Below, piece by piece: positions 4,217-24,482 of a stretch of DNA of 64,000 nt. The DNA lies in NCBI GenBank assembly GCA_965215885.1, contig CBDCEW010000086.1, positions 1-64,000 on the forward strand, read 5' to 3'. The position numbers were made by a program, and so were the translations under genes. A model generated the notes under the pieces. That model had not been told where the DNA came from and did not search any database. It worked only from the letters and a program-made list of their open reading frames with translations. How positions within the stretch are numbered: the stretch's first letter is position 1; each line of letters begins with the position of its first letter. The DNA comes from Candidatus Moanibacter sp. GTDB taxonomy: Bacteria; Verrucomicrobiota; Verrucomicrobiia; Opitutales; UBA2987.

Positions 4217-6298
4217 ATGACGACCGAGGAATTTCTTGAACTGGTAGGCTTGGAAGAGAAGGGAACCCTCGAAGCGGTTGAACGCGCCTGTGAATCCACC
4301 ATCGAGGAGTACGAGCGGCAGCAGCAGAAGATCCCGGTCAAGACGACGCGAATCATACTCCAGCGGAAGATCGATCTCCTGAGGGAGACTTTTCCGGAAA
4401 TCCGGAACCGATACCTGGCGGAGGAGGCCTACAACCTCCTGGGTGAAGTCAATGAGCTGATCGACCAGCGGCAGTTCAGCCGGGCGCAGGTAAAGGTAAG
4501 CCGTGCCCGCGAGTTGGTAGGCGATTTTGCGGAGGGAGCTCTGGCGCACAAGCTACAGGAAACCCAGGCGATCATCGACGATGCGAGAGCGCCCGAAGAG
4601 GCGGACGCTCTGAAAGAGTTCAGCGGCAAACTCAATTCTTTTTACGAGGTTTTGGGTAAAGACGGGGTTGAGGCCGCCGGCGTCTCGCTTGCCGAGGTGG
4701 ATAGTATCGGCTTGCAGCTCACAAGGGAGGGGATTCGCGAGCGACTCGAAGAGGCTCATAAGGCTCTCGGGAAGAAAACACAGGAAGCGGAGACGGCATC
4801 CCGGATTGAGGCTGAACGCGCCGCGTTGGATCAGATCCTTGAGTCGGACGATATTGAGGCCGCCCGGAAGTCGATCGAATCTCTTGAGGGACTTCTGTGC
4901 GAGGTCAGTTCGGTTGACGATGAGGAGTTCGTTGACCGGGCGAGGGAACGTATCCGCCGGATCGAAGCGAAGCAGGAAAGGATTCATGAGCTAACCAGCT
5001 CTATCGAGAAGGTCGAGGCTGCTTTGGCAGAGGGAGAATTGGATGCGGCGGCCTCCAACCTCGGAGCGGTGGACTCATTGATGACCGAGGATGACGAGGA
5101 ACTCGGCGGGAGAGTGGACAAGCTCCGTAGATCGCTCGAGATGGCCCAGGCCGAGAAGACACTCGAGAGTGCCGCTTCGGCTCTCGAGGAAGGTCAGTTC
5201 GAGGAGGTAGAGCGGCTGTTGGGGCAACTGGAGGCAAAGACGCTCCCGGATAGAGATCCCGGCTTTGAGGATCGGCTTCACCGGCTGCGGTCTCGAATTC
5301 AGGAGGAGACAACGAGGGCGGAACGCGAAGATGAATTGGAATCGCTTCGCAGGAATGTCGAAAGGGCGCTTGAGGGGCGCCGCCTGGACGAGGCCGATGC
5401 CGCGATCGGCCGTCTCGAGACATTGTCCGCTGATCCGGATTACCGCGAACTGGTTGAAGCGATCGACCTTGGGAGTTACCGCGACCAGTTAGGGGAACTC
5501 AAAAGTATTCAGAAATCGGAAAAGAAATTCCGATCTTCTCTGGATCGTATCGATCTTCTGCTTGACCGAGGCGATGCCTCGGAGGCCAAAAAAGCGCTCG
5601 ATGTGGCGGAAACGGATTGGATGGAGGGCGGTCTATCGGAGGGTCGCGACCGGTTGAAGGAGCGGCGCGAGCGACTGGCGGCTGAGGAAGCTGATGAAGT
5701 CGTTCGAAGATCGGTCCGGGAGAATCTGGCCGCTTTCGGACGGGAGCTGGGTCAGGACAATCCGGCGGAGGCAAAGCGGCACCTGGATTCGGCGGAGAAG
5801 TTACTCAAAAAAGACGTGAAAGACCCGGTTCTCGCGCGGGAGATCGAAACCGCGCGGGAAGAACTGAAAAAGTTGAAAGGTCCCGGTGTCGTGGGAAAAC
5901 TCTGGGGTTCCCTCTCGGGCGGCGGGAAGGAAAAAGGCGCCCGGCCAAAAGATTGGGTCGGTAGTATTGTGGTCGTTGAGGGTCCTCGCAGTGGCGAGGA
6001 ATTTGAACTTCTCAAGGGCCGGCCCCTAACTTTCGGACGTAAAGGGATGGGGAAAACAGTGGATAGTGGAGTCATCCTCTTTGACGATCCATCGCGGCGA
6101 ATGAGCGCCAGCCAGGCGGTCATCGCCTGGAGCGCCGGAGATGATGCCCCCTGCCTGGAATCGCCCGGTGGCATGCAGCCCAACCTGTTGAACGGCCGAC
6201 CGCTTCCCGCCGGAAGTCGAAGTCCCCTTTCCGATGGCGACCGCATCACACTCCCCGGCTCCCGCCCCGTCGTGATACAGTTTACGGCGGAGGACTAG
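4217..6298 (+). CDS. Helical-repeat/coiled-coil protein with C-terminal FHA domain
   Basis: 693 aa; C-terminus IVVVEGPRSGEEFEL..LTFGR...MSASQAVI...LLNGRPL...LSDGDRITL follows the FHA pattern. Confidence 0.8.
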   Translation: MTTEEFLELVGLEEKGTLEAVERACESTIEEYERQQQKIPVKTTRIILQRKIDLLRETFPEIRNRYLAEEAYNLLGEVNELIDQRQFSRAQVKVSRARELVGDFAEGALAHKLQETQAIIDDARAPEEADALKEFSGKLNSFYEVLGKDGVEAAGVSLAEVDSIGLQLTREGIRERLEEAHKALGKKTQEAETASRIEAERAALDQILESDDIEAARKSIESLEGLLCEVSSVDDEEFVDRARERIRRIEAKQERIHELTSSIEKVEAALAEGELDAAASNLGAVDSLMTEDDEELGGRVDKLRRSLEMAQAEKTLESAASALEEGQFEEVERLLGQLEAKTLPDRDPGFEDRLHRLRSRIQEETTRAEREDELESLRRNVERALEGRRLDEADAAIGRLETLSADPDYRELVEAIDLGSYRDQLGELKSIQKSEKKFRSSLDRIDLLLDRGDASEAKKALDVAETDWMEGGLSEGRDRLKERRERLAAEEADEVVRRSVRENLAAFGRELGQDNPAEAKRHLDSAEKLLKKDVKDPVLAREIETAREELKKLKGPGVVGKLWGSLSGGGKEKGARPKDWVGSIVVVEGPRSGEEFELLKGRPLTFGRKGMGKTVDSGVILFDDPSRRMSASQAVIAWSAGDDAPCLESPGGMQPNLLNGRPLPAGSRSPLSDGDRITLPGSRPVVIQFTAED

Positions 6299-9172
6299 CG
6301 AAAATAGCTAAATCGGGGTCACAGAGAAGTGAACAGAAGGAAACGGAGAAAGATTGCCCGCTAAACACGCGAAAAAACGCGAAATGGGGAGCTGTAGCAA
6401 CGGATAGAAGGACAGCAACGGATGAGGGGATTCTTAGATCCCGTTGTGCCGTCCCGTTCAGCGGGATAAGTACGTGGGTTTTTTAGATCGCGGCTACAGA
6501 AAAGTGAACAAAAGGAAACAAAGAAAAACGAAGAGAGGGATAATTCGGATTGTCGGCGAAGCATCTTTCGAAGGGAGATCGATAGAGTTTTACCGCGGAT
6601 TGCGCGGATTGCGCGGATGGGCAACCAAAACTCTGATCGACTCCCTATACTCCTTCTTGCGAGTGCGCAATCTATGTCCTCTCTTTATCCGCTCAAGCTG
6701 AAATCCGCGGTCACGTTGATTCCGATCGACTTCACGTCGAATGATGTTTTCTGGTACCAGTTTCGTTGCGGCTTCGCTGCGCTAGCGTGCTCTGTGACCT
6801 TCTTCTGTTCTGTCGGCCTACCATTTTGATTGCGTCCAATCCCGCCTTGCCGGGGTTCACTGAATTCTTCTACCCTCACCTCATCATGCCCTTTGATTCC
6901 GACGAGACGATACTTGCCGGCGATGGCGGGGACGGGCCCGGCGTCCTGCGGCCAGGGGAGCGTCTGGGTGATTACCGGATAATTGAAGAATTGGGCCGTG
7001 GGGGCATGGGCGAGGTGTATCTTGCCGAGCAGGTGCACCTGAAACAGAGGTATGCGCTGAAAGTGCTGCCCCGCGAGCTGTCTGGGCGGGCCGATTTCCG
7101 TGAGCGCTTCGAGCAGGAGGCACGAACTTTGGCTGCGCTAAAGCATGAAAGGATTGTGCAGGTGCATTATGCCGGAGAGGACCGGGGTCGCTTCTATCTC
7201 GCCATGGAGTTTATAGAGGGAGGCAGCCTGGAAGATTACCTGAAAGCGCAAGGTGGTCCCATCGACGCGGCTCAGGGCAGGCGACTAGAGCCTGGCGAGG
7301 TCAAAGGGATTCTTACAGAGATTTTGGAGGGGCTTCGATTTGCCCACGATGAGGGAATTATTCATCGCGATCTCAAGCCAGCCAATATATTGCGCATGGC
7401 GGACGGAGGGATCAAGATCAGCGACTTTGGACTGGCCCGTGTGGTCGGGGAAGAATACGTGCAGACGATGATCAAGAAGAGCATTGCTCTGTCGCAATTT
7501 GGGGATCGATCGACGCAGGTGGCCGGCGCTTCTGGAAGCGAGGCCTATGTGGGGACCCTGCACTACATGAGTCCGGAGGTGCAGGAGGGACGTCCGGCCG
7601 ATGAGCGAAGCGATCTCTATGCGATTGGTGTGATGGGTTATTACTTCCTGACCGGGAGGAAGCCGATAGGACGGGCGAAGGCGATCGCACAATTGGTTCC
7701 CGAAGCCGGCGAATCGTGGGATGCAGTGATCGACCAGTGTATGGAGTTGGAACGCTCTGACCGATATCAGAGTGTTGCCGAAGTTCTCGGCGATTTAGAA
7801 GAGATTGAAAGCGGGCTTCACAAAAAGCCCAAATCGAAGGGGCCTGTATGGGTGGGGATGGCAATCACTATCTTGGCAGGTCTGGCGGCGGGATATTACT
7901 GGGGCGTGTATTTGCCGGAAACGAAGGATACAGAGGAGCGAACCGCCAAGCCTGAAATCATAGCAGCTGAAAAGGTGCCGCTCGGGCCTGAGACGCTGAT
8001 CGAGAAGGAATCGATCCCGATCGCAACGGCATTTGGGAGTATCCTGGTTACAAGCGAACCGAAGGGTGCAAATGTGTTACTCGATGGCCAATTGGTTGGG
8101 AGGACACCCCTGGTGTTGGAAAAGCAACCTGCGCTTAAACAGTATCGGATCGAAGTTAACCTGAAAGGTTATCGAAAGCACGAGCAGGAATTCTATCTTG
8201 AAGCTGCCGAGCGTAAGTACGTCACGCTTGTTTTGAAAAGTAAGCATGGCACTCTGCAGATTGATGGTATCCAAGACGAATTGCTTCCAGAAACTGTGGT
8301 GGCGGTAGATGGTCAAAGACACACAGCGGGGAAAGTTCACTTAGAGAATCTGTTGGCTGGAGATAAGACGGTTCTTGTAGAGCACCCGGATTACTTACCT
8401 TGGCAGGGTGACGTGAAAATAAGCGAACAAATGGTAACTGAAGTGCGCCTTCAGTTGGAGCCTAAGCCTGGCCTTCTCACAGTTACATTGAAGAAAAATC
8501 TGCCGTTTGAGATTGTTGCCAACGGCGTTGTTTTGAAAGGAACAGACAACCGTTTTCCTATCGTTCCGAATGTGGAGCAGGTTGTTGAGGTGCGAGTGCG
8601 TGAGCATCTTACCGCGAAACGAACCTTCATGTTCGGCCCAAACCAAGAGAAGGAATGGAAAGTGGTCCAAGTTCCCATTCCAGAACCAGTGGAGGGAAGC
8701 CCTTGGATGGTTCCTTACCTCGGGCTGAAAATGGTGTGGATCCCACCGGGTACTTTCTTGATGGGGAGCCCGGCGAGTGAATCGGAACGGGGAAAGGACG
8801 AAAACTTGCACGAAGTAGTTTTGACAGATGGCTTCTGGCTGGGTCGGTATGAAGTGACGCAGGGAGAATACGAGCAAATCATTGGGAGTAATCCGAGCGG
8901 CTCCAAGGGGATGGGAGTTCGGGCACCGGTGGAGCAGGTATCTTGGGAGGATGGGATGAATTTTGCAAAGCAACTGTCCGAAAAGGAGCGAGCGGCGGGA
9001 AGGTTGCCGGAAGGATACGTATATAGTCTGCCAACCGAGGCGCAGTGGGAGTATGCGGCGCGGGCGGGCACAAGCAGCGCGTTTCACTACGGGAATAGCC
9101 TGTCATCAAAACAGGCGAACTTCTTTGGGGACTATCCATACGGAGGAGCAGAAAAAGGCCCCTCTTTAGATA

Positions 9173-11089
9173 GACCCCATTCGAAAAGCCTTTCGAGCGG
9201 GCGGTTTAAGGTTCTCCGCCACGGGCGGACCAGCCTATGGCTGGCAGGTTTCGGGTTTTAGGCTGCCGGCGCTGCCGATGAGCAGGTATTGAGCGGCCAT
9301 CGGCGTGGCTTGCTGCACAATACGTATATTTGCCGCTGTCTGGAGGCATACTCATCCCGTGGTGCTTTTTTCTCTGAGCTTCAAAGCGGTCAGATTCAGG
9401 CTGCCTGTTCCAGTTCCTCCCCTCGGCGTTTCTTCATCAGTATGATGCGGCAGAAGTTGTAGGCCAGAACCTTCTCGAGCAGTTTATCGCCTACCGCATC
9501 GATGCCGCGGCGGCCGAGTTCGCCAAAGGCAAATCCATCTTTAATCGTGAACATCAGCGACTCCACTGCGGAGCGATCGCGGCGTGCCTCGCGATACGCC
9601 TCGCTCTCCCAGTCCTCGGGGGTGGTCAACTTCTTGCCCTTCGCCCCACTGATACTGATCTGCTTTACCCCCATGCTCAGCACCTCCTTGCGTCCCTTCG
9701 CCGAAGCATATCCGTCATCGGTGCTGACCAGTTCAGCAATGACACCGGTGCGCTTGATCGAATCGCCGATGGCCGGCGCCAGCTCAATGGAGTCTGCCGC
9801 ATTGCCTTGCGGTACGATCAGGCTGGTGACAAAACCGTTTTCGCTGCGAACCAGTTGTGGCTTGTACCCGATCACTGGATTGCGGCTGCCCTTCTTGATG
9901 TAGGCCGCCGATCCGTCCGAGAGGCTCAGGACCTTCTGTGTGGACGGTAGCTTCTTTTCGTGAAACACCCGATCATGAGCATACTCAACAACCCGCTTGG
10001 CGTCGGCAATATCGCCCCTGATCTGGCTCAATGCCCGCTCCAGAAGCTCCCGGCGAGTGGGAGGCAGTGAATCCATCGACAGGCCCTCTTCAAGATGGCT
10101 CAGTTCCCCCGTTAGTGAGTCGGCCGCCTTGCGGCCCCGCTTGAGCAACCGCCGGTAGTGTTTCTTCAGCTTGCCCTTCGACTTCGGTTTGCCCGCGGCC
10201 AGACAAATCTGAAACTCCAGCTTGTCCATTTCCTCCAGCCAACGCCCAACCCATCCCTTGCGAAAATCCTCCAGCCCGAAGACATGCAACTTCTGACCCA
10301 AACGATTGGCCCGCATCAAAAGACCGCTCAGAATCTTCCCATCGGTGGGCCAGCAGCTGTTTGCTTTCACCGAGGTGCTGTCGATCGTCAGCTTCCCGAA
10401 ATCGTCCCATTGCTCCTGGAGGATAAACCCAATCTGTTTATCAAAGATCAACTCGCGGGTCGTATGGCTGACCAGGTTCACGTTCTCCAGAATCGTCGTC
10501 ACCGCCGGCATTCTCAGTCCCCCGCTCTGCAAAAATCCGTACAAGCTCATCGACTCGCGCACAAACCGCCGTGCCGGTTTCGTGGTCAACGAACCCAGAA
10601 ACCCTCGAATCATCACGAACACGTATACCGCATAAGCCGGCATCCGCGGCCGGCCTGCCCCAAGATTCAATTCAGCAGCCAGAATATTCTCCTCCTCGAT
10701 GTCCAGCTCCGGCAGCTCCGCTGTGCGCCCTTCAAAGAACCTGCGATCTTCCAATCGAAGTTTCTTCTTCTCACGCGCATGGGCGTCCAGATCCTTCTCG
10801 ATCGCCTCGATGATTTGCGCCGCGAACCCGGCCAATTCTTCAACTTCATCCAGAAAATCACGGAAATCCGTGTCTGGAACCGGCAGAATGAGGTTGCTAA
10901 GGGGCGTCTTATCGCTTTTGTTCTCCTCTGTCGCACATGTTGGCATGTTTAACTCCTTTCTTAATCTTAGGTTGTTAAACACTAGCATGTTGCGACACTT
11001 TTTATCAAGCCAAAAAATGATTTTTCTCAAGTTTTTCTTGCGCCTTTTGCGCCTCTTTGCGGCCAATCAGTAGCTTTTCGGATAAGGTC
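9173..11089 (-). mobile_element. 1917-bp insertion sequence, copy 1 (DDE; IS5/IS1182/ISNCY-like, family not assigned)
   Basis: Imperfect TIRs GACCCCATTCGAAAAGC / GCTTTTCGGATAAGGTC; flanking direct repeat TAGATA (9167-9172, 11090-11095); second copy at 19226-21142. Confidence 0.95.
9396..10946 (-). CDS. DDE transposase
   Basis: TIDSTSVKAN, STDDGYAS, RSAVES motifs; ATG 10946 preceded by AAGGAG. Confidence 0.9.
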   Translation of the reverse strand: MPTCATEENKSDKTPLSNLILPVPDTDFRDFLDEVEELAGFAAQIIEAIEKDLDAHAREKKKLRLEDRRFFEGRTAELPELDIEEENILAAELNLGAGRPRMPAYAVYVFVMIRGFLGSLTTKPARRFVRESMSLYGFLQSGGLRMPAVTTILENVNLVSHTTRELIFDKQIGFILQEQWDDFGKLTIDSTSVKANSCWPTDGKILSGLLMRANRLGQKLHVFGLEDFRKGWVGRWLEEMDKLEFQICLAAGKPKSKGKLKKHYRRLLKRGRKAADSLTGELSHLEEGLSMDSLPPTRRELLERALSQIRGDIADAKRVVEYAHDRVFHEKKLPSTQKVLSLSDGSAAYIKKGSRNPVIGYKPQLVRSENGFVTSLIVPQGNAADSIELAPAIGDSIKRTGVIAELVSTDDGYASAKGRKEVLSMGVKQISISGAKGKKLTTPEDWESEAYREARRDRSAVESLMFTIKDGFAFGELGRRGIDAVGDKLLEKVLAYNFCRIILMKKRRGEELEQAA

Positions 11090-11463
11090 TAGATAACACG
11101 GTGAAGGTAGGGAGCTACGAGCCGAATGCTTGGGGATTTTACGACATGCACGGTAATGTATGGGAATGGTGCGCCGATTGGTATGGAAAGTACCCAACGG
11201 GTCGAACGGTGGATCCGAAAGGCCCCAAGTCGGGTTGGAAACGTGTGAACCGCGGCGGTGGCGTCTTCAACTCTGCGGATGAGTGCCGGTCGGCCGCCCG
11301 CTCCAAGGACTCGCCCGGGTACCGTCTCGGCTTCACTCGGGGCTTCCGGATCTCGCTGCGAAAGGTAGAGGATTGACAGCCATCCTGAATCATTCAGGTG
11401 TTGTCAATTTATTCGAGCGATTCGGAGAGGCGAAGCCGTCATAGATTTGTTGCAAGCTGGATG

Positions 11464-11609
11464 CCCTTCGACTTTGCTTAGCGCCTTCGGCTGGTTATCG
11501 GATACTCGATATCGGTTAATGGGCTTCAGCACAGGTAGCTGCACCGCCTGTGGTTAGCACCGTCGAATCACTCTTGACTCTCGTAGTCCCGCTCCTTGGG
11601 AGCGCAGTG
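11464..11609. repeat. ~150-bp intergenic repeat following kinase-lectin gene 1 (copy 1 of 3)
   Basis: GGTTAATGGGCTTCAGC.CAGGTA.CTGCACCGCCTGTGGT.AGCACCGTCGAATC shared with 14937-15090 and partly with 17385-17477. Confidence 0.85.
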
Positions 11610-11802
11610 CTTTTCGGTACTGGGACCTGGAGGAAGCGTAGCCGGCAGCCTTGACGCTTCAGAGATCGCACTTAGGATAACGTCCCTTATTTGATGGCTC
11701 GGCGCAACATAGTGAAGACGGGACACATTGATCCACTCTTTACTGCTGAGCGCAGCGAAGTCCCGGCTTGCCGGGGGTTACTGAATTCTTCTTCCTCCCC
11801 TC

Positions 11803-14682
11803 ATGCCCTTTGATTCCGATGAGACGAGACTGGCGAGCGATGGCGAAGATGGGCCTGGGGTCCTAAGGCCGAGAGAGTGCCTGGGCGATTACCGAATCGT
11901 TAAGGAATTGGGCCGCGGGGCGATGGGCGAAGTGTATCTGGCCGAGCAGGTGCATCTGAAGCAGAGATATGCGCTGAAAGTGCTGCCTCGCGAGCTGTCG
12001 GGAAAGGCCGATTTCCGGCGGCGTTTCGAGCAAGAGGCTCAGACCCTTGCTGCGCTAAAGCATGAGAAGATCGTTCAGGTGCACTATGCCGGAGAGGACC
12101 GCGGTCGCTTCTACATTGCGATGGAGTATGTCGAGGGGGGGAGCCTGGAGGACTACCTCAAGGGGCAAGGCGGTCCCTTCGACGCAGCTCAGGGCAGGCG
12201 ACTAGAGCCTGGAGAGGTTAAAGATATTCTTACCGAGATTTTGGAAGCGCTCCGATATGCCCATGGAGAAGGGGTCATTCATCGCGATCTCAAGCCAGCC
12301 AACATTCTGCGCACTACCGAGGGAAGAATCAAGATCTCGGACTTCGGGCTGGCCCGTGTGGTTGGGGAGGAATACGTCCAGTCGATGATACAAAAAAGCA
12401 TCGTGCTGTCGCAGTTGGGGGATCGATCGACTCAAGTGGCAGGATCATCAGGAAGCGACGTTTATGTAGGGACAATTCACTACATGAGTCCAGAGGTGCA
12501 GGAGGGCCGGCCGGCCGACGAGCGAAGCGACCTCTACGCGGTGGGAGTCATGGGTTACTACTTTTTGACAGGGAGGAAACCGCTGGGGCGGGCAAAGGCA
12601 GTTACACAGCTGGTTTCTGAGGCGGCAGATTCGTGGGACGAGGTGATCGACCGGTGCATGGAGCTAGAGCGCTCTGAGCGGTATGGGAAGGCCGAAGAGG
12701 TTCTGGGCGATTTGAGGCGGATCAAGATTGTTACCGAGAAGAAGCGTAAATCTATGCCACCAATATGGGCAGCTTTATCAGTCATCCTGGTAGCGGGGCT
12801 GGCGGGGGGTTATTACTTGGGTGAATATCTGCTGCCAGGAATGAAAGAGAAAGCAGAAGAATCCAAAACGATACGAACCGTTCCGGAAGAAAGGGTTCAG
12901 ACCGAGCAGGAACCGCCGCCTCAAAGAGTGACGGTAGCGCCGAAGGTTGAACAGGAAGCGGTCACCCATAGGCAAACCGAGGGTGAAATTGTGAGCGAAC
13001 CACCTGCGTGGACTGGCTTGCCCAGGGGCGGCTTAATTGTGCAGACGGAGCCGGGTGTACGGATCAGCGTGACCGGCGATCAGGGCTATGAAAGCGATCT
13101 TGGTGCAGCTGACAGAAACGGCTTCCTGGAGCGCGTCGGGGCCCTGCCAGTTGGAAGTTACACCGTTTACATCGAGAAGGACGGGTATGAACCGGCGCGT
13201 CTCGAAGCGGTCAGGATCCGTGAGGGTCAGGATGCCGTAATCACGCAGAAGCTTCAGCCGCAGCCGGGGACCTTGTTGGTGTTCAGCCAGCCGGGGGGAG
13301 CCGAGGTAAGACTCGATGGCAGAGTTGTTGGTAAGACGCCGCTCGTGTTAGGAGAACAGGCTTCCCTCAAGCAGTATCAATTGACAGTCAGCTTGCGCGG
13401 TTACCGGAAGCACGAGGAAAATCTCTACCTTGATGCTGCCGAGCGCAAGCGGGCGATGCTCAACTTGGAGGAGGAATGGGGCACTCTTCGCTTGGATGGG
13501 ATCAAAACGGAGTTACTGCCGGGAATAACGGTGACGGTTGATGGAGAAAAGCATCCTGCGACTAGCGGTGGAATCGAGAGGCTGTCTCTGGGAGAAAAAG
13601 TGGTATCGGTGGAACATCAGGACTATCGGCCATGGCAGGGACGGGTGAGGATCGAGGACGGGAAGGTAGCGAAAGTTCGACCATCGCTTGAACCCTTGGC
13701 CGGGACCTTAAGGATGGAGGTATCGCCGCGTGTGGTCTACCAATTGTATATGAATGGGGAAGAGGCGACTGGGCGCAATGGGGTCTATACAATTCCTGCG
13801 GAAAAGAGCTACCAGCTGGAGGTCAGAGCGAAGGGGTATCAAGCCGCCCGGAAACAGGTACTGATAGGAGCCAATGGAACCGAGAGATGGGCGGTGGCTT
13901 TAGAGAAACGGCCCGGCCCGGTGGAAGGCGAGCCATGGACCGTCCCTGACTTTGGGCTCAAGATGGTGTGGATTAAGCCGGGGACGTTCATGATGGGGAG
14001 TTCGTTTGGGGAGACGGGACGAGAAGGTGACGAGACCGGGCACGAGGTTGCGCTGACGGAGGGCTACTGGCTGGGGCAGTATGAGGTGACTCAGGGCGAA
14101 TTTAAAGCTTTAATGGGCAATAACCCGAGCGGCTTCAAGGAGGAGGGCGTGCGGGCGCCGGTGGAGTGGGTGTCCTGGGAAGATGCGATGGGTTTCGCGA
14201 AGAAATTGACGGAGCGCGAACGAGCGGCGGGACGGCTGCCGAAGGGGTATGTTTACAGCCTGCCGACGGAGGCGCAGTGGGAGTATGCGGCGCGGGCGGG
14301 GACGAAGACGGCTTTCCACTCTGGCAACAGCTTCTCCTCGAGACAGGCGAATTTCGATGGGAGATATCCGTACGGTGGAGGAAGTAAGGGTCCCTCGTTG
14401 AATAAGACGGTAATGGTGGGGAGCTATGAGCCGAACGGGTGGGGACTGTTTGACATGCATGGTAATGTATGGGAATGGTGCTTTGATTGGTATGCAGATT
14501 ATCCGACGCGTCGAACTGTTGATCCAATGGGCCCCGGAACAGGGAGGCACCGCGTGAACCGTGGTGGCAGGTGGGGTGTCCTCGCGGAGTACTGCCGGTC
14601 CGCTTACCAGTACAGTTCCGCGCCCTCGTCCCGGAATGATAGTCTCGGCTTCCGACTCTGCCTGCGAAAAGTCCAGAACTGA
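11803..14682 (+). CDS. Receptor-like Ser/Thr kinase - TM - PEGA - FGE-sulfatase/C-type-lectin-fold protein (paralog 2, intact)
   Basis: 959 aa; intact kinase motifs, TM IWAALSVILVAGLAGGYYL, PEGA repeats, FGE motifs through NDSLGFRLCL. Confidence 0.95.
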   Translation: MPFDSDETRLASDGEDGPGVLRPRECLGDYRIVKELGRGAMGEVYLAEQVHLKQRYALKVLPRELSGKADFRRRFEQEAQTLAALKHEKIVQVHYAGEDRGRFYIAMEYVEGGSLEDYLKGQGGPFDAAQGRRLEPGEVKDILTEILEALRYAHGEGVIHRDLKPANILRTTEGRIKISDFGLARVVGEEYVQSMIQKSIVLSQLGDRSTQVAGSSGSDVYVGTIHYMSPEVQEGRPADERSDLYAVGVMGYYFLTGRKPLGRAKAVTQLVSEAADSWDEVIDRCMELERSERYGKAEEVLGDLRRIKIVTEKKRKSMPPIWAALSVILVAGLAGGYYLGEYLLPGMKEKAEESKTIRTVPEERVQTEQEPPPQRVTVAPKVEQEAVTHRQTEGEIVSEPPAWTGLPRGGLIVQTEPGVRISVTGDQGYESDLGAADRNGFLERVGALPVGSYTVYIEKDGYEPARLEAVRIREGQDAVITQKLQPQPGTLLVFSQPGGAEVRLDGRVVGKTPLVLGEQASLKQYQLTVSLRGYRKHEENLYLDAAERKRAMLNLEEEWGTLRLDGIKTELLPGITVTVDGEKHPATSGGIERLSLGEKVVSVEHQDYRPWQGRVRIEDGKVAKVRPSLEPLAGTLRMEVSPRVVYQLYMNGEEATGRNGVYTIPAEKSYQLEVRAKGYQAARKQVLIGANGTERWAVALEKRPGPVEGEPWTVPDFGLKMVWIKPGTFMMGSSFGETGREGDETGHEVALTEGYWLGQYEVTQGEFKALMGNNPSGFKEEGVRAPVEWVSWEDAMGFAKKLTERERAAGRLPKGYVYSLPTEAQWEYAARAGTKTAFHSGNSFSSRQANFDGRYPYGGGSKGPSLNKTVMVGSYEPNGWGLFDMHGNVWEWCFDWYADYPTRRTVDPMGPGTGRHRVNRGGRWGVLAEYCRSAYQYSSAPSSRNDSLGFRLCLRKVQN

Positions 14683-14936
14683 CGGCCGCGTGCGGTCTTC
14701 CCATGATGCAGCCAGTTGAACCGAATTTCAGGCGGCGCTGAGAGGAGTCCGTTTTTGCATCCGGTCTACGCCACTTATGGCTGCGTCCAGGCATTTAGGA
14801 GAAAATGAGTGGGCCGGGTTGCCCGGCCCCAAAGATTGCAGATTGCGGTCGTCGTCGGTCCTCTCCGTTATCGACACAGGTAGGCCTCGAGATGATCCGA
14901 ACGACGAAGTCGTCCGGCTACGGGAATCAATGGATG

Positions 14937-15090
14937 ACCTTCGACCTTGCTCAGGGCCTTCGGTTGGTTGCCGGATAGTCGAAATTGGTTAATGGGCTTC
15001 AGCCCAGGTACCTGCACCGCCTGTGGTGAGCACCGTCGAATCGCTCTTAACCCTCGCAGTTCCGCTCAGCGGGAGCGAAGTGGGTTCCCG
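14937..15090. repeat. ~150-bp intergenic repeat (copy 2)
   Basis: Aligns with 11464-11609 and 17385-17477. Confidence 0.85.
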
Positions 15091-15171
15091 TGCAAGGAGA
15101 ATATGGGAGACGTGTCACATCCTTGACTCCAAAATGGAGACACCTACGGTTAGGGCCTTTCGTGACTGATT

Positions 15172-17114
15172 ATGCCCTTTGATTCCGACGAGACGAGACT
15201 GGCGAGCGATGGCGAGGATGGGCCAGGCGTCCTGAAGCCTGGAGACCGCTTGGGCGATTACCGTATTGTTGAGGAATTGGGCCGCGGGGCGATGGGCGAG
15301 GTGTATCTTGCTGAGCAGGTGCACCTTGAGCAGAAATATGCCCTCAAGGTACTGCCGTCCGAGCTTTCGAAGAGTGCAAGTTTCAAGGAGCGCTTTCGAA
15401 GCGAAGCGAAGACGTTGGCAAGACTAAAGCATGACCGAATTGTCATGGTCCATAACGCCGGTGAAGACCGCGGTCGCTTTTACCTTGCGATGGAATATGT
15501 CCGGGGAGGTAGCCTGGAAGAGTACCTCAGCGAGCAGGGCGGGCGGGTACGGCCCGAGGAGGTTAAGGACCTTCTCATCCAGATCCTGGAGGGACTCCGA
15601 TATGCCCATGGAGAGGGGATCATCCACCGAGACCTCAAACCGGCGAATATCCTCCGTACACCTGAAGGGAAGATTAAGATATCGGACTTCGGATTAGCCC
15701 GTGTGGTAGGCGAGGAATACGTCCAGTCGATGATTCAGAAGAGCATCGCCCTCTCGCAGCTCGGTGATCGATCTACTCAGGTGGCGGGCTCATCGGGATC
15801 TGACGCTTACGTTGGCACGATTGACTACATGAGCCCGGAAGTGCGGGAGGGTCGGCAAGCTGACGAACAGAGCGACCTCTACGCAGTGGGAATATGTGGC
15901 GCGGGCTGGGACAACAACGGCGTTTCACTCTGGTAACAGCCTGTCCTCAAGTCAGGCAAACTTCGCGAGGGAACTAGGTAAGACTGTAAAGGTGGGGAGC
16001 TACGAGCCGAATGCGTGGGGCTTGTATGACATGCATGGCAATGTATGGGAATGGTGCTATGACAGGTATGGAGGCTATACGAAGGGGACAGCAACCGACC
16101 CGGTGGGTCCCTCTACGGGTTCGGACCGCGTGTTCCGCGGCGGCGGCTGGGGCAACGACGCTCTGAGCTGCCGGTCGGCCAACCGCCGCAGGTTCTCGCC
16201 CGGCTACCGCAGCTACGGCCTAGGCGTCCGCCTCGCTCTCAGGAAGGTAAGAGAGCCAGAGCCTTCACCGGTTGAAGGGGAGCCATGTACGGTTCCTGAC
16301 CTTGGGCTAAAGATGGTGTGGATTGAGCCGGGGACGTTTATGATGGGAAGTCCTGCGAACGAGTCGGGACGGAGTAGTGACGAGACCCAGCACGAGGTGG
16401 TCCTGACCAAGGGCTACTGGCTGGGGCAGTATGAGGTGACGATCGGGGAGTTTGAGAAATTCACGGAGGCGGCGAATTACCGCACGGAGGCTGAGCGGGG
16501 GGGACGGTATGTACCAATGGACTGGAGAAAATTTGGAAAAGCAGGCGGAAACGAGCTGGCGAAATGTCTTCAACGAGGGAACGAATTATCCAGTCGTAGG
16601 GATCAGTTGGAACGATGCGGTGAAGTTTGCTGAATGGCTGACCGATAGGGGGAGGCGTGCGGGTCGGCTGCCAGAGGGGTATGTGTACGGACTACCGACC
16701 GAGGCGCAGTGGGAGTATGCGGCACGGGCGGGGACGAGGACGGCTTTTCATTATGGCAACAGCCTGTCCTCAACACAGGCGAACTTCGATGGCAATTATC
16801 CTTACGGTGGAGCAGGTAAGGGCCCCTATTTGGAGAAGACGGCAAAAGTGGGCAGCTACGAGCCCAATGCTTGGGGATTGTATGACATGCATGGCAATGT
16901 ATGGGAATGGTGTAACGACTGGTACGGTGAGTATCCGACGGGCCGAAGGGTGGATCCGAAGGGACCCGGATCGGGTTCGATCCGCGTGCTCCGCGGCGGC
17001 GGCTGGTTCCAAAACGCGCTGCACTTCCGGTCGGCCTACCGCTACAAGTACTCGCCCGGGCTCAGCTTCAACTACCTGGGCTTCCGGCTTTGCCTGCGTA
17101 AGGTCCAGAACTGA
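15172..17114 (+). pseudogene. Kinase-lectin paralog 3 with two tandem FGE/CLec domains; internal deletion at ~15882-15891 and frameshift at G7 16497-16503
   Basis: Kinase ends at DLYAVG and joins out of frame to (Q)WEYVARAG of an FGE domain; the second FGE domain is split between ORFs 15896..16633 and 16452..17114. Confidence 0.9.
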
Positions 17115-17384
17115 CGACCCCGTCGGATCTTCCTATGGTGCAGCCGAATGAACCGTTCTGGTGAGGCTCCGCCGTGACAGGTCCGCTTCGCCTTCCGGTC
17201 TACGCCATGAATGGCTGCGCCCTGGCATGCAGGTCAGGTGAGTAACAGGTACAGGTAGGGGTGAAGGGGCGTCGTGGCGGGGGTGAGGGGGCGGAGCCGC
17301 CCGCGCCAAGTCGCCCCGCGGCGCACGGTCAAGACATGCAATTCGCTTTTTTGATATTCCGGCCACTGCACCGCAGGAAAGGCA

Positions 17385-17477
17385 GGAGCAGCTGCACCGC
17401 CTGTGGTGATCCCGCCGAGCGGGACGAACCGCTCTTGACCCTCGCAGCTCCGCTCAGCGGGAGCGAAGTGGGTTCCG
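17385..17477. repeat. Partial intergenic repeat (copy 3)
   Basis: GCTGCACCGCCTGTGGTGA...CGCTCTTGACCCTCGCAGCTCCGCTCAGCGGGAGCGAAGTGGGTTCC. Confidence 0.8.
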
Positions 17478-17577: not shown

Positions 17578-18762
17578 TTACTCCTCGCTCTCGATGGTGT
17601 TGTCGAATTCAGGTTCTCTTTGCTCCAGGATCTTCATGACTTCGGGAGCCAGATAGATGCGGTTTCGTTTTTTTCCAGTAACCTCTCGAAGGATTCCGGC
17701 AGCTACCAGCTTTTCGATGTTAAGCTGGCTGGAGCGCGGCGTGATCTGGAGCCTTTGCGAAACCCGGCTATTCGTGATTGCAGGGTAAGCGAAAAGTTCG
17801 TCAACGAGCTGCAATAAGAGAGAAGAAGCCCGTGCTTCCTGTAGCTTGTCACGATAGTCCTGCCAAAGTCGAAGCAGCTGATCGGATCGCGAGATTGCGT
17901 CTTTGGACTGAACTTCGATGGCGCGGAGAAAGAAACTCATCCATTCTGTCCACGATCCCCTTTGACTCACTTTGAGCAGTAATCGATAATAGTCGTCGCG
18001 GTATCGCTCAAAGAAAGCGCTAAGGTAGAGGAGCGGCTGGGGAAGGAGACCCTCTGTGCAGATCAATAGTGTCGTGAGCAATCTACCGATGCGGCCGTTT
18101 CCATCTAGAAAGGGATGAATGGCTTCGAACTGGTAGTGAATCAATGCAAGGCGCATTAGGGGAGGGAGAGTCGATTTCGTATGGAGGTACTGCTCCAAAT
18201 CGTAAAGTGCCTGTTTCATCTCGTCTACTGGAGGCGGCACGTAGACAGCGTCCTCTAGCGTGCAACCGGGTGGACCTATCCAGTTCTGCGACCGTCTGAA
18301 CTCGCCTGGAGTCCGGTTTTCGCCACGTACTCCCCCAAGGAGTCTCTCATGCATCTCCCGAATCAGGCGAAGGGAAAGAGGGAGTTTTTCAAGCCTGGCG
18401 ATGCCATACTCCAGCGCCTGCACGTAGTTAGCAACCTCACGTACATCGGGGACATTCTCCTCACCAATATTGGCCGCTTCGAAGAAAAGAAGATCAGAAA
18501 AGGAGGCCTGAGTGCCCTCAATCCTACTTGAAAGTACCGCCTCCTGCCTTACAAAGGGCCCAATGAGCAAATGAGGGTTGGGTAGGGTCCGGGCAACTCC
18601 CGCCAACTCGCTCAAGGCCCGGTCTGCCGCTGAAAGTCTCCGAACCAGGGCCAGGTCCAAATCCAGGATTGGCTCAAGAGGACTGGGAATATAGGCCCAA
18701 TACCCTTTTTGGGTGTGGATCAACCCGCCACTTTTATGTGTTTCATAATCACGGGGTTCCAT
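17578..18762 (-). CDS. Fic family protein with N-terminal inhibitory motif and C-terminal HTH
   Basis: HPFLDGNGRIGR catalytic motif; SSRIEG fits (S/T)xxxE(G/N). Confidence 0.95.
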   Translation of the reverse strand: MEPRDYETHKSGGLIHTQKGYWAYIPSPLEPILDLDLALVRRLSAADRALSELAGVARTLPNPHLLIGPFVRQEAVLSSRIEGTQASFSDLLFFEAANIGEENVPDVREVANYVQALEYGIARLEKLPLSLRLIREMHERLLGGVRGENRTPGEFRRSQNWIGPPGCTLEDAVYVPPPVDEMKQALYDLEQYLHTKSTLPPLMRLALIHYQFEAIHPFLDGNGRIGRLLTTLLICTEGLLPQPLLYLSAFFERYRDDYYRLLLKVSQRGSWTEWMSFFLRAIEVQSKDAISRSDQLLRLWQDYRDKLQEARASSLLLQLVDELFAYPAITNSRVSQRLQITPRSSQLNIEKLVAAGILREVTGKKRNRIYLAPEVMKILEQREPEFDNTIESEE

Positions 18763-19225
18763 CTAATTATACATAGGAACTATAACAGGTTTCATTATTA
18801 TACAAAACAACTAATATGTATAACAATAAAAGTGTTTTGTCAAACTGCTCTTGTGCTTTGAGCCACCACAGAAATTGATCCTTCCAAGTCGAAGACTATC
18901 TTGAGGTTACATCTCGTTCAAGAGGCTCTTTCATGTCACTGCAACACCCGATCATCTTTGCGGTTACTCTATTTTTGGTATTAATGCGCATCTGCCTCGC
19001 TCAGGGAAACCAAAGCAAAAGAGTGAGCAGCGGATAGAAATGGGAAAGAATATCCACGCCAGGATCCCGCAAGCCGAGACAAAGAAGGGAGAGGAAGTCA
19101 GATTGATTTGGGACAATAGTACGGGAGAGTTCTGGCAATCCCGACAAGCCGGGAACAGCAGAGCAACGGATGGGGAGAGGACATAGATCCCGCGGTCGCC
19201 GGCGTTCCTCTTTGGTGGCTACCTA

Positions 19226-21142
19226 GACCCCATTCGAAAAGCCTTTCGAGCGGGCGGTTTAAGGTTCTCCGCCACGGGCGGACCAGCCTATGGCTGGCAG
19301 GTTTCGGGTTTTAGGCTGCCGGCGCTGCCGATGAGCAGGTATTGAGCGGCCATCGGCGTGGCTTGCTGCACAATACGTATATTTGCCGCTGTCTGGAGGC
19401 ATACTCATCCCGTGGTGCTTTTTTCTCTGAGCTTCAAAGCGGTCAGATTCAGGCTGCCTGTTCCAGTTCCTCCCCTCGGCGTTTCTTCATCAGTATGATG
19501 CGGCAGAAGTTGTAGGCCAGAACCTTCTCGAGCAGTTCATCGCCTACCGCATCGATGCCGCGGCGGCCGAGTTCGCCAAAGGCAAATCCATCTTTAATCG
19601 TGAACATCAGCGACTCCACTGCGGAGCGATCGCGGCGTGCCTCGCGATACGCCTCGCTCTCCCAGTCCTCGGGGGTGGTCAACTTCTTGCCCTTCGCCCC
19701 ACTGATACTGATCTGCTTTACCCCCATGCTCAGCACCTCCTTGCGTCCCTTCGCCGAAGCATATCCGTCATCGGTGCTGACCAGTTCAGCAATGACACCG
19801 GTGCGCTTGATCGAATCGCCGATGGCCGGCGCCAGCTCAATGGAGTCTGCCGCGTTGCCTTGCGGTACGATCAGGCTGGTGACAAAACCGTTTTCGCTGC
19901 GAACCAGTTGTGGCTTGTACCCGATCACTGGATTGCGGCTGCCCTTCTTGATGTAGGCCGCCGATCCGTCCGAGAGGCTCAGGACCTTCTGTGTGGACGG
20001 TAGCTTCTTTTCGTGAAACACCCGATCATGAGCATACTCAACAACCCGCTTGGCGTCGGCAATATCGCCCCTGATCTGGCTCAATGCCCGCTCCAGAAGC
20101 TCCCGGCGAGTGGGAGGCAGTGAATCCATCGACAGGCCCTCTTCAAGATGGCTCAGTTCCCCCGTTAGTGAGTCGGCCGCCTTGCGGCCCCGCTTGAGCA
20201 ACCGCCGGTAGTGTTTCTTCAGCTTGCCCTTCGACTTCGGTTTGCCCGCGGCCAGACAAATCTGAAACTCCAGCTTGTCCATTTCCTCCAGCCAACGCCC
20301 AACCCATCCCTTGCGAAAATCCTCCAGCCCGAAGACATGCAACTTCTGACCCAAACGATTGGCCCGCATCAAAAGACCGCTCAGAATCTTCCCATCGGTG
20401 GGCCAGCAGCTGTTTGCTTTCACCGAGGTGCTGTCGATCGTCAGCTTCCCGAAATCGTCCCATTGCTCCTGGAGGATAAACCCAATCTGTTTATCAAAGA
20501 TCAACTCGCGGGTCGTATGGCTGACCAGGTTCACGTTCTCCAGAATCGTCGTCACCGCCGGCATTCTCAGTCCCCCGCTCTGCAAAAATCCGTACAAGCT
20601 CATCGACTCGCGCACAAACCGCCGTGCCGGTTTCGTGGTCAACGAACCCAGAAACCCTCGAAGCATCACGAACACGTATACCGCATAAGCCGGCATCCGC
20701 GGCCGGCCTGCCCCAAGATTCAATTCAGCAGCCAGAATATTCTCCTCCTCGATGTCCAGCTCCGGCAGCTCCGCTGTGCGCCCTTCAAAGAACCTTCGAT
20801 CTTCCAATCGAAGTTTCTTCTTCTCACGCGCATGGGCGTCCAGATCCTTCTCGATCGCCTCGATGATTTGCGCCGCGAACCCGGCCAATTCTTCAACTTC
20901 ATCCAGAAAATCACGGAAATCCGTGTCTGGAACCGGCAGAATGAGGTTGCTAAGGGGCGTCTTATCGCTTTTGTTCTCCTCTGTCGCACATGTTGGCATG
21001 TTTAACTCCTTTCTTAATCTTAAGTTGTTAAACACTAGCATGTTGCGACACTTTTTATCAAGCCAAAAAATGATTTTTCTCAAGTTTTTCTTGCGCCTTT
21101 TGCGCCTCTTTGCGGCCAATCAGTAGCTTTTCGGATAAGGTC
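19226..21142 (-). mobile_element. 1917-bp insertion sequence, copy 2
   Basis: Same ends as copy 1; flanking direct repeat TACCTA (19220-19225, 21143-21148). Confidence 0.95.
19449..20999 (-). CDS. DDE transposase (near-identical to 9396-10946)
   Basis: Translation differs from copy 1 at MLRG/MIRG and GDELL/GDKLL. Confidence 0.9.
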   Translation of the reverse strand: MPTCATEENKSDKTPLSNLILPVPDTDFRDFLDEVEELAGFAAQIIEAIEKDLDAHAREKKKLRLEDRRFFEGRTAELPELDIEEENILAAELNLGAGRPRMPAYAVYVFVMLRGFLGSLTTKPARRFVRESMSLYGFLQSGGLRMPAVTTILENVNLVSHTTRELIFDKQIGFILQEQWDDFGKLTIDSTSVKANSCWPTDGKILSGLLMRANRLGQKLHVFGLEDFRKGWVGRWLEEMDKLEFQICLAAGKPKSKGKLKKHYRRLLKRGRKAADSLTGELSHLEEGLSMDSLPPTRRELLERALSQIRGDIADAKRVVEYAHDRVFHEKKLPSTQKVLSLSDGSAAYIKKGSRNPVIGYKPQLVRSENGFVTSLIVPQGNAADSIELAPAIGDSIKRTGVIAELVSTDDGYASAKGRKEVLSMGVKQISISGAKGKKLTTPEDWESEAYREARRDRSAVESLMFTIKDGFAFGELGRRGIDAVGDELLEKVLAYNFCRIILMKKRRGEELEQAA

Positions 21143-21296
21143 TACCTAGTTAGAAATCGAGCTGACCCGAACGACGAAGTCGTCCGGCTGGAGTTTGGCC
21201 TTTTACTAGATAAATTGCGCCCCTATCTTCTTTTTTTCTTCTAAAGTAAGTATTTAGCTTGACTTGGATCTAGTTATTTAACTAGATCTATGGCCC

Positions 21297-23288: not shown

Positions 23289-24482
23289 TTAGGGCTTTCG
23301 GCGCGAGAAGCGGACTTTACTTTTCACCCCGGAGGGAGATTGGGTGAGGTCGCCGGCGTAGTGGTCGTCGCCGACGAGGATGAGGCTGTAGGTGGAGGAG
23401 GAGGGCTGACCGAAGACAGTGGTGCGGAGGGAGAAAGCCAGTTCTCCGGTCCGTGGATTCAGGTCGAATTCCGTAATCGCGATGGGCGTTCCTCGCGAGG
23501 CGGAAAAGGTGAGCGTGAAGCGGCCGTCATCGTTTTGCAGCTGGAAACCGGCCGATCCCATGGTGCCGCCGTGACGGATGTGGAATTCGCCGGCCATTTT
23601 GTCGGAAACGGGGGTGGGGTCGCGGTAGAACCCGGTGGCTTGCCATTGGGAGAGGAATCCCTCCTGTTTATCCTTTTCGGGGAGGATGAAGAAGAAATCG
23701 CGCGTGAGGGAGGAATGCTCCCACGGAATCTGATCCTCGCCACTTTCCTGCATGACATCGACGCGGACACGCTTGAAGATCGTTTCGATGGGCAGCGCGT
23801 CGCTCTGCATATGGGTGAGAAACCTCTCCGTGTAGAGCCCGTTTTTGCGGGTGCCGTCGGAGGCGTACTGTCCGGGCGCGGTGGCGAATGCGAGGAGGGT
23901 ATTGGCTCCCGATTCCATGGCGGCCAATCCACTTCCCCGATCTTCTTCGAGGGGGGGCAGGTATTCTCGGCATGCGTCGATGATAAGGATATTCACCTCG
24001 TTGTCGGTCTCGTTAAAGAGCTGGGCGACTCGACGAGCATTGAGGAATTCCCGATCGAGATCGGGCGTGCTTCGGATTTTCCCAAAGGCTACGGGAACGA
24101 GGTAGTTGATTCCACCGAGCTGGAGCCCGTGTCCGGAGAAATAAAAGAGCCCGATATCGGCGCCTTCGAGGCGTTTACGGAACTCCGCGAGGCCGTTCTC
24201 CATTTCAGCCAGCTCGGAATCTGCGAGATGGATGACTTCGAATCCGAGTCTGTCCAACGTGCGTTTCATCTCCCTGGCATCATTGAGCGTGTTGCGGAGC
24301 GGGGAATCGGCGTAGGTTCCGATACCGATCACGAGGGCGACCTTGCGCTCGTCGCGCATCTTGGCGAAGGGATCGTCTTCGCCGATGAGGGGGAAGGATA
24401 GGGAAAGAAGGAACCCGCCGGCGAGGGAGGCGAGGATCAATCGCGGTGCTGAGGAAAATTGAATGGAGGGTCGTGACAGCAT
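23289..24482 (-). CDS. Exported caspase-family (peptidase C14) protein
   Basis: ALVIGIGTY, FYFSGHG (His), IIDACR (Cys), NGLYT, QIPW; N-terminal hydrophobic signal. Confidence 0.92.
   Translation of the reverse strand: MLSRPSIQFSSAPRLILASLAGGFLLSLSFPLIGEDDPFAKMRDERKVALVIGIGTYADSPLRNTLNDAREMKRTLDRLGFEVIHLADSELAEMENGLAEFRKRLEGADIGLFYFSGHGLQLGGINYLVPVAFGKIRSTPDLDREFLNARRVAQLFNETDNEVNILIIDACREYLPPLEEDRGSGLAAMESGANTLLAFATAPGQYASDGTRKNGLYTERFLTHMQSDALPIETIFKRVRVDVMQESGEDQIPWEHSSLTRDFFFILPEKDKQEGFLSQWQATGFYRDPTPVSDKMAGEFHIRHGGTMGSAGFQLQNDDGRFTLTFSASRGTPIAITEFDLNPRTGELAFSLRTTVFGQPSSSTYSLILVGDDHYAGDLTQSPSGVKSKVRFSRRKP

Follow-up and report, generated by a model that had tools for sequence, protein, structure and literature searches.

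Receptor-like kinase genes of Candidatus Moanibacter as probable orphaned targets of decayed diversity-generating retroelement cassettes

Diversity-generating retroelements (DGRs) that carry an HRDC-containing accessory gene ("Architecture C," the Treponema TvpA type) have been described with FGE-sulfatase/CLec targets, including a kinase architecture, b12, in a survey in which over half of the candidate DGRs were set aside as broken or incomplete (Wu et al., PMC5758913). Cyanobacterial variable proteins (VPs) combining a Ser/Thr kinase with a CLec domain have been reported along with remote VPs and "VP homologs" (Vallota-Eastman et al., PMC7517822), and degenerate DGR loci together with "antigen sensor" targets are on record for Thiohalocapsa PB-PSB1 (Dore et al., PMC10907252). 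Between them, these three papers document kinases with CLec tips as DGR targets, remote targets, cassettes of the HRDC type, and loci in decay. We analyzed three paralogous kinase genes in a 64,000-nucleotide stretch of the genome of Candidatus Moanibacter sp., a member of the Opitutales (assembly GCA_965215885.1, contig CBDCEW010000086.1, positions 1 to 64,000; hereafter the window, C86:1-64000 in our numbering). The assembly, denoted G000 below, comprises 6.36 Mb in 105 contigs, with 90.3% completeness and 5.5% contamination. An earlier note, based on the window alone, had read these genes as membrane kinase receptors with DGR-derived variable tracts that are still diversified in trans by a remote DGR. 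The derivation of the tracts from DGR action is supported by their codon fingerprint, by the match to real template repeats (TRs), and by stubs of DGR accessory genes. As for their present state, the genes are probably orphaned targets of decayed HRDC-type DGR cassettes, with frozen lectin tips.

Variable tracts and their templates

Four lectin C-terminal tracts with a common scaffold are present on the forward strand of the window and start at the positions given in the earlier note, and the five codon columns quoted there are all as written. These are tract 1 (11245..11349), with one extra codon, as that note had it, and with the conserved Trp lost; tract 2 (14554..14655), the most eroded; tract 3a (16130..16231), internal to the third gene; and tract 3b (16986..17087), at the end of the same gene. 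Blastn search of the genome produced a fifth such tract on contig C85. As is characteristic of DGR variable regions (VRs), the tracts are located at the 3' end of CLec-fold targets and vary at template-adenine positions, as judged against foreign templates. The notion that the copies differ mostly at codon positions 1 and 2 holds only among tracts 3a, 3b, and C85, for which the pairwise differences at positions 1/2/3 are 13/9/5, 10/9/5, and 12/13/4 over 34 codons, and fails in the four pairs that involve copy 2, with position 3 differing in 15-19 of the 34 codons. Across all ten pairs, the difference rates at the three positions are 0.36/0.35/0.31, to be compared with 0.18/0.15/0.38 upstream of the tract, where the differences are mainly at position 3.

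The fingerprint itself is an excess of codons ending in C. Copies 1, 2, 3a, 3b, and C85 contain 20, 15, 25, 22, and 22 such codons out of 34, whereas 9-10 are expected from the paralogs' own codon use when the amino acids are controlled for (P of 2.5e-4, 0.04, 4e-8, 7e-6, and 7e-7, respectively). In the twelve variable columns, 51 of the 60 codons of the five tracts end in C (12 of 12 in tract 3a and 11 of 12 in tract 3b). Each of seven real VRs has 8-11 C-ending codons among its 12; a control from the same genome, the conserved, non-DGR-like FGE gene on contig C105, has 3 of 12 (p 8e-5 against the 51 of 60). Columns with three or more different bases account for 21 of the 35 template-adenine columns and for 5 of the 67 others. 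Among 22 FGE tips from relatives, seven pass the C-ending test at p<0.005, including a conserved-type tip, L078; all seven belong to genomes without a match to a DGR reverse transcriptase (RT). More speculatively, given this distribution, many CLec sensors of the order might be unrecognized former DGR targets.

The template motif inferred from the tracts has one match in the genome collection, a template immediately following a YMDD RT in a metagenome-assembled genome of the Kiritimatiellae, and two matches in metagenomes (loci L081 and L082), with none in viral contigs. L081 is a whole DGR cassette that consists of a target with kinase-like, transmembrane (TM), and two FGE domains, an HRDC gene, an RT, and a TR; L082 contains a target and a template, with no RT among the open reading frames (ORFs) listed. 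Of the 19 DGR loci examined, 13 carry an HRDC gene, L081 among them. At non-adenine sites, agreement between the L081 template and the window tracts ranges from 64 of 73 (tract 3a) down to 57 of 73 (copy 1).

Conceivably, these patterns might come from ordinary divergence of paralogs that share a conserved CLec motif and a binding face under diversifying selection, without any DGR ever having acted. FGE genes with the same motif and variable residues do exist in genomes without a DGR RT match, the codon signal of copy 2 is weak, and one conserved-type control is a false positive. However, ordinary divergence leaves unexplained the amino-acid-controlled excess of C-ending codons in four of the five copies and the contrast between 51/60 and 3/12, and is strongly disfavored by the DGR accessory stub that follows the C85 copy (see below); we regard it as very improbable.

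Accessory-gene stubs, missing machinery, and drift

The HRDC protein of L081 has a single tblastn match in G000, C85:21490-21377 (58% over 38 aa, E 5e-8), directly behind the fifth tract. The same stub is recovered by a profile of 13 proteins (E 5.3e-6) and by a DNA profile (E 6.1e-8), and its frame passes into unrelated sequence after about 35 codons. When the HRDC profile was run over 401 genomes, the matches that start at the N-terminus were, among those listed (nine more are unlisted), the 16 best ones and the C85 stub; these 16 include the accessory genes of the DGR loci, and nearly all other listed matches cover the HRDC half only. Two 761-aa ORFs (C102:178685-180967 and C85:48368-50650) were rejected as accessory genes because only their HRDC half is covered, and are probably RecQ-like; their near-identical scores on different contigs are compatible with a duplication or with mixed strains.

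In the window, a putative remnant of an HRDC-type DGR accessory gene, weaker than the C85 stub, follows the third kinase gene at 17336..17409 (+); it comprises the 5' part, about 24 codons, and is frameshifted and truncated. There is no RT or TR downstream; the stub is followed by a spacer and then by a Fic gene on the opposite strand. The DNA behind the third gene and that behind the C85 copy are 83% identical over 225 nt, the stub included (alignment score of 69; the highest score among 2000 shuffles was 34). Upstream of the window stub, a 17-bp GC motif (17288..17304, +) is identical to a motif in the spacer between the target and the accessory gene of L084 (blastn E 0.008 against 19 DGR loci); in L084, an intact DGR, this motif falls in a predicted hairpin, and a putative stem in the window is predicted to be less regular. 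Thus, VR-derived tracts accompanied by cassette remnants but lacking the machinery, that is, decayed DGR loci with orphan targets, are found firmly on C85 and less firmly in the window. Both loci would be former cis cassettes, with the target, the spacer, and the accessory stub in place and the RT/TR half gone, so that "remote" is the wrong description for them. The stub and the spacer motif behind the third gene, the C85 copy, and a further kinase on contig C69 had all been overlooked in the earlier note. The relatives' loci L004-L078 yielded no accessory stub.

None of the three machinery components of a functional HRDC-type DGR, namely the RT, the TR, and an intact accessory gene, was found in G000. 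Both full RTs of the assembly pass the group II intron model cut-off, and a profile of 19 DGR RTs adds just one fragment, on contig C90, which by eye is group II-like and is cut by a 1.9-kb insertion sequence (IS) that also occurs in the window. The L081 RT, used as a query at E<=1e-40, has no match in G000 or in any of the eight family genomes, and matches in 15 of the 401 genomes of the order. The TR was sought in G000 by blastn, an ungapped adenine-tolerant scan, blastn with foreign TRs, and a scan for AAC-rich sequence (25 of 58 windows viewed), and was not found; a profile of 18 TRs produced only the five tracts themselves (10-14% A) at E<0.2. Neither an Avd nor an HRDC accessory gene is intact, and only 5' stubs are detectable. 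The one bAvd match, on contig C80, was rejected: it scores as the four-helix bundle TIGR02436, reaches 41.9 where the Avd cut-off is 80, and lies near neither an RT nor a TR. Hence the remote DGR that the earlier note had placed outside the window did not turn up in a search of the whole assembly for the template and the DGR RT. Among the relatives, the nine RT matches of G003, a family member, were read by eye as group II intron copies, and four other FGE-rich relatives have no RVT_1 match.

Elsewhere in the order, G123, for which no DGR RT was matched at E<=1e-40, carries HRDC-type accessory genes on contigs C147 and C342, and G063:C3 contains shortened RT and accessory matches; these two genomes likely point to more decayed cassettes. 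An AAC-rich, mutated tract resembling a TR, with no adjoining RT ORF seen (L044, G040:C48:4220-4338), is a likely orphan TR.

The state of the tracts can be gauged from the non-adenine sites, which retrohoming would reset. Seven live TR-VR pairs have in total 2 differences at 501 such sites, 0-1 each. Measured against the five-copy majority, tracts 1, 2, 3a, 3b, and C85 deviate at 9, 15, 5, 3, and 4 of 67 non-adenine sites, respectively; for the three closest tracts, this amounts to 12/201, significantly more than in the live pairs (p 1e-5). Even tracts 3a and 3b, which belong to the same gene, differ at 8 non-adenine sites (5 without the last four codons). This drift indicates that the tracts are not being kept reset: a live VR equals its genomic TR at essentially all non-adenine sites, and the tracts disagree even among themselves.

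Contigs from other studies allow a view of the population, for four of the eight listed runs, at a depth of about 2-4 and with 40 of 498 variant rows; none of the listed pieces extends over tract 1. Over tracts 2, 3a, and 3b, the listed pieces differ by 0-2 letters at this low depth and with this partial listing. Contigs of run X4 contain tract 3a with 1 difference and 1 gap in 718 nt, and another one runs over tract 3b through the stub to 17500 with 1 difference, at 16985, outside the tract, and no gap. Because this contig crosses the stub without a gap, the X4 population shares the broken stub. An X6 contig has 2 differences over 14262-14648, which covers most of tract 2, and contigs of X1, which may be the source sample, contain tract 2 with 0 differences.

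These observations bear on the proposal that the tracts are live remote targets, still rewritten in trans by an intact DGR in an unassembled part of the genome or in a fraction of the population. About 10% of the genome is missing; DGR RTs do occur in the order (the 15 genomes above); tracts 3a, 3b, and C85 are just 3-5 sites away from the majority; X4 seems to hold an undeleted allele of the third gene; and, in the section of the Thiohalocapsa report that deals with the subject (PMC10907252, section 8), trans activity is described along with structural variants that retain intact RT and TR. Nevertheless, the failure to find an RT, a TR, or a whole accessory gene in G000 or a DGR RT match in the family, the 0-1 non-adenine differences in live pairs, the near-identity of the listed contigs over three tracts, the broken stub shared by X4, and the presence of the most eroded tract in the sole intact kinase gene all argue against continuing diversification, which we consider unlikely. 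The claim of live targets accordingly gives way to that of orphaned ones.

Several points weigh against the conclusion that the genes are orphaned DGR targets with frozen tips. With 90.3% completeness, 5.5% contamination, and 105 contigs, a distant DGR could be unassembled, and with low-depth contigs and a partial listing of variants, rare tract variants could be missed. The "template" used to count deviations is the five-copy majority in place of the lost TR, so that the counts are approximate, and the C85 and C86 copies may have had different templates. The template-adenine columns also correspond to naturally variable residues, which makes the contrast between the two classes of columns partly circular. 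The C-ending test is positive in one of eight long FGE genes of relatives that were judged by eye to be of the conserved type (L078, p 2e-5), and for copy 2, the C-ending signal is marginal (p 0.04, or 0.21 on genome-wide usage). The tract is significantly less diverged at synonymous sites than the gene body in just 3 of the 10 pairs. Finally, the window stub is weak on its own, being missed by nhmmer both genome-wide and locally and detected by local hmmsearch at E 0.047, and overlaps a short repeat that is also found behind the other two kinase genes.

The kinase genes and their proposed history

Gene 1 (6886..11376, +) encodes a Ser/Thr kinase-TM-PEGA-FGE/CLec protein and is disrupted inside the FGE domain by the 1.9-kb IS (9172..11090, -; 4-bp target duplication), past which the 3' piece continues. 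Gene 2 (11803..14682, +) is intact and encodes a 959-aa protein with a kinase domain, a carboxypeptidase-regulatory-like/PEGA stalk, and an FGE/CLec domain; a KKRK basic patch precedes its single hydrophobic helix (residues 321-339; mean hydropathy of 1.8). In gene 3 (15172..17114, +), the TM and PEGA regions are missing, a deletion junction with a 9-bp microhomology (15883..15891, +) has fused the kinase, out of frame, to an FGE domain of which one half remains, and a second FGE domain is frameshifted near 16500. Pfam searches detected Pkinase, PEGA, and FGE-sulfatase domains in genes 1 and 2, and a kinase with two FGE pieces in gene 3. Thus, of the three kinase-(TM-PEGA)-FGE/CLec genes seen by the earlier note, the first two have the domains stated, but genes 1 and 3 are broken, and gene 2 is the only intact member of the trio. 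The junction in gene 3 is not merely an assembly artifact because X1 contig 7 spans it with 0 differences. X4 contig 18 matches the window up to 15890 and continues with 793 letters unlike the window; it seems to represent the undeleted gene 3 allele. Its assignment to the C69 paralog was rejected, given that C69 is 81% identical to the gene 3 kinase whereas the contig shows 0 differences.

Beyond the window, the fifth tract belongs to a kinase-TM-PEGA-FGE paralog at G000:C85:21377-24105 (-) with two frameshifts that could be either real or assembly errors. A sixth paralog-like kinase (kinase-TM-PEGA; G000:C69:21262-23023, -) is frameshifted in the kinase and ends before any lectin domain; it is located among transposases. 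In the family member G003, a related kinase-PEGA-FGE gene is frameshifted and has no accessory stub. A protein homologue search retrieved mainly multi-FGE proteins and added no context; the few homologues that carry names come mostly from Verrucomicrobia.

The kinase motifs (Gly loop, ALK, HRDLKPAN, DFG, and YMSPE), which we take to be catalytic, are present, and gene 2 combines them with one TM helix and a predicted outward domain, as in Hanks-type single-pass receptor kinases; the best match among solved relatives is TvpA, a DGR target (2y3c, E 1.3e-29). Judging from sequence, gene 2 likely functions as a receptor kinase of fixed specificity, with a cytoplasmic Hanks kinase, one helix, an outward stalk, and a CLec tip. 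Of the 15 deviations in its tract, 13 fall on the 34 sites at codon position 3 and 2 on the 33 sites at positions 1-2 (p 0.003), a drift expected if the gene was released early and then evolved under purifying selection.

We propose that the ancestral cassette consisted of a kinase-TM-PEGA-FGE/CLec target, a spacer, an HRDC accessory gene, an RT, and a TR, and would have rewritten the lectin tip by adenine-specific retrohoming. Duplication of the target would have given rise to at least five kinase paralogs, with five lectin tips surviving; the RT and template would then have been lost, with the accessory stubs remaining behind gene 3 and the C85 copy, and the tips would have frozen and drifted by ordinary mutation. 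Gene 2 was probably the first to escape DGR control and seems to survive as a receptor kinase of fixed specificity, while the remaining copies seem to be decaying in an IS-laden genome. More tentatively, and with odds that we put somewhat below even, DGRs might act as transient generators of gene families: a cassette visits a lineage, diversifies and multiplies a receptor kinase, and is lost, leaving fixed paralogs whose release can be dated by non-adenine drift (3-5, 9, and 15 sites), the oldest copy being retained under selection in the role of an ordinary receptor.

The IS that disrupts gene 1 has 113 near-full-length copies (152 matches), which account for about 3% of the genome and are flanked by 4-bp target duplications; the second copy in the window occupies 19225-21143. 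Its transposase scores under all NCBIfam cut-offs, with ISNCY as the best match. Contigs of runs X2 and X4 join the right end of the IS (11091) to the left end (9171) with a few letters in between, an arrangement that IS circles or adjoining copies would produce. A short intergenic repeat, with a few partial copies elsewhere, is present behind all three kinase genes (11458-11609, 14931-15088, and 17392-17476). The neighborhood includes a gene for a long protein whose C-terminus weakly matches FHA (4217-6298; E 0.006), the Fic-family gene (17578-18762, -), and a caspase-domain gene (23289-24482), which hint at signaling or conflict.

Comparison with known systems

As a working variable-receptor system, the locus would be another instance of the published kinase-CLec DGR targets. 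The analogy with an antigen-receptor repertoire drawn in the earlier note has already appeared in print (PMC10907252, PMC7517822), but a working repertoire is not supported here. As the relic that it most likely is, it preserves released targets at graded stages within a single genome, only one of them still intact, and it provides a simple codon test by which former DGR action can be recognized where surveys anchored on the RT detect nothing; this could raise estimates of the number of bacterial sensors shaped by DGRs, although no new mechanism is involved. In the literature searched, which excludes most subscription papers, no article deals specifically with orphan targets recognized by a codon fingerprint, although such cases could be listed in the supplementary target tables of PMC5758913 and PMC7517822.

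With the cyanobacterial VPs (PMC7517822), the Moanibacter genes share the paralogous kinase-CLec organization, the graded VR/TR similarity, and transposons nearby. The cyanobacterial genomes have a DGR, however, and the VPs are mostly cytosolic, whereas here a TM helix and a PEGA stalk are present, in a genome where no DGR RT was found. Thiohalocapsa PB-PSB1 similarly has duplicated loci, missing or pseudogenized machinery, IS-driven rearrangement, and kinase/TM/CLec targets, but retains complete DGRs, with trans targets that equal the template at all non-adenine sites and vary in reads (PMC10907252); neither was found here. The HRDC DGRs (PMC5758913) have in common with the present locus the C-terminal variable tract of an FGE/CLec domain, an HRDC-type gene behind the target, and TvpA as the best solved relative, and differ from it in that here the accessory gene is only a stub, neither an RT nor a TR was found, and the tracts have drifted at non-adenine sites. 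Among individual loci, L081 has an RT and a TR, its own VR equals the TR at 73/73 non-adenine sites, and its kinase is of another, weakly scoring type; it nonetheless shares the order of a kinase-like/TM/FGE/FGE target followed by an HRDC gene, as in the ancestral cassette proposed here.

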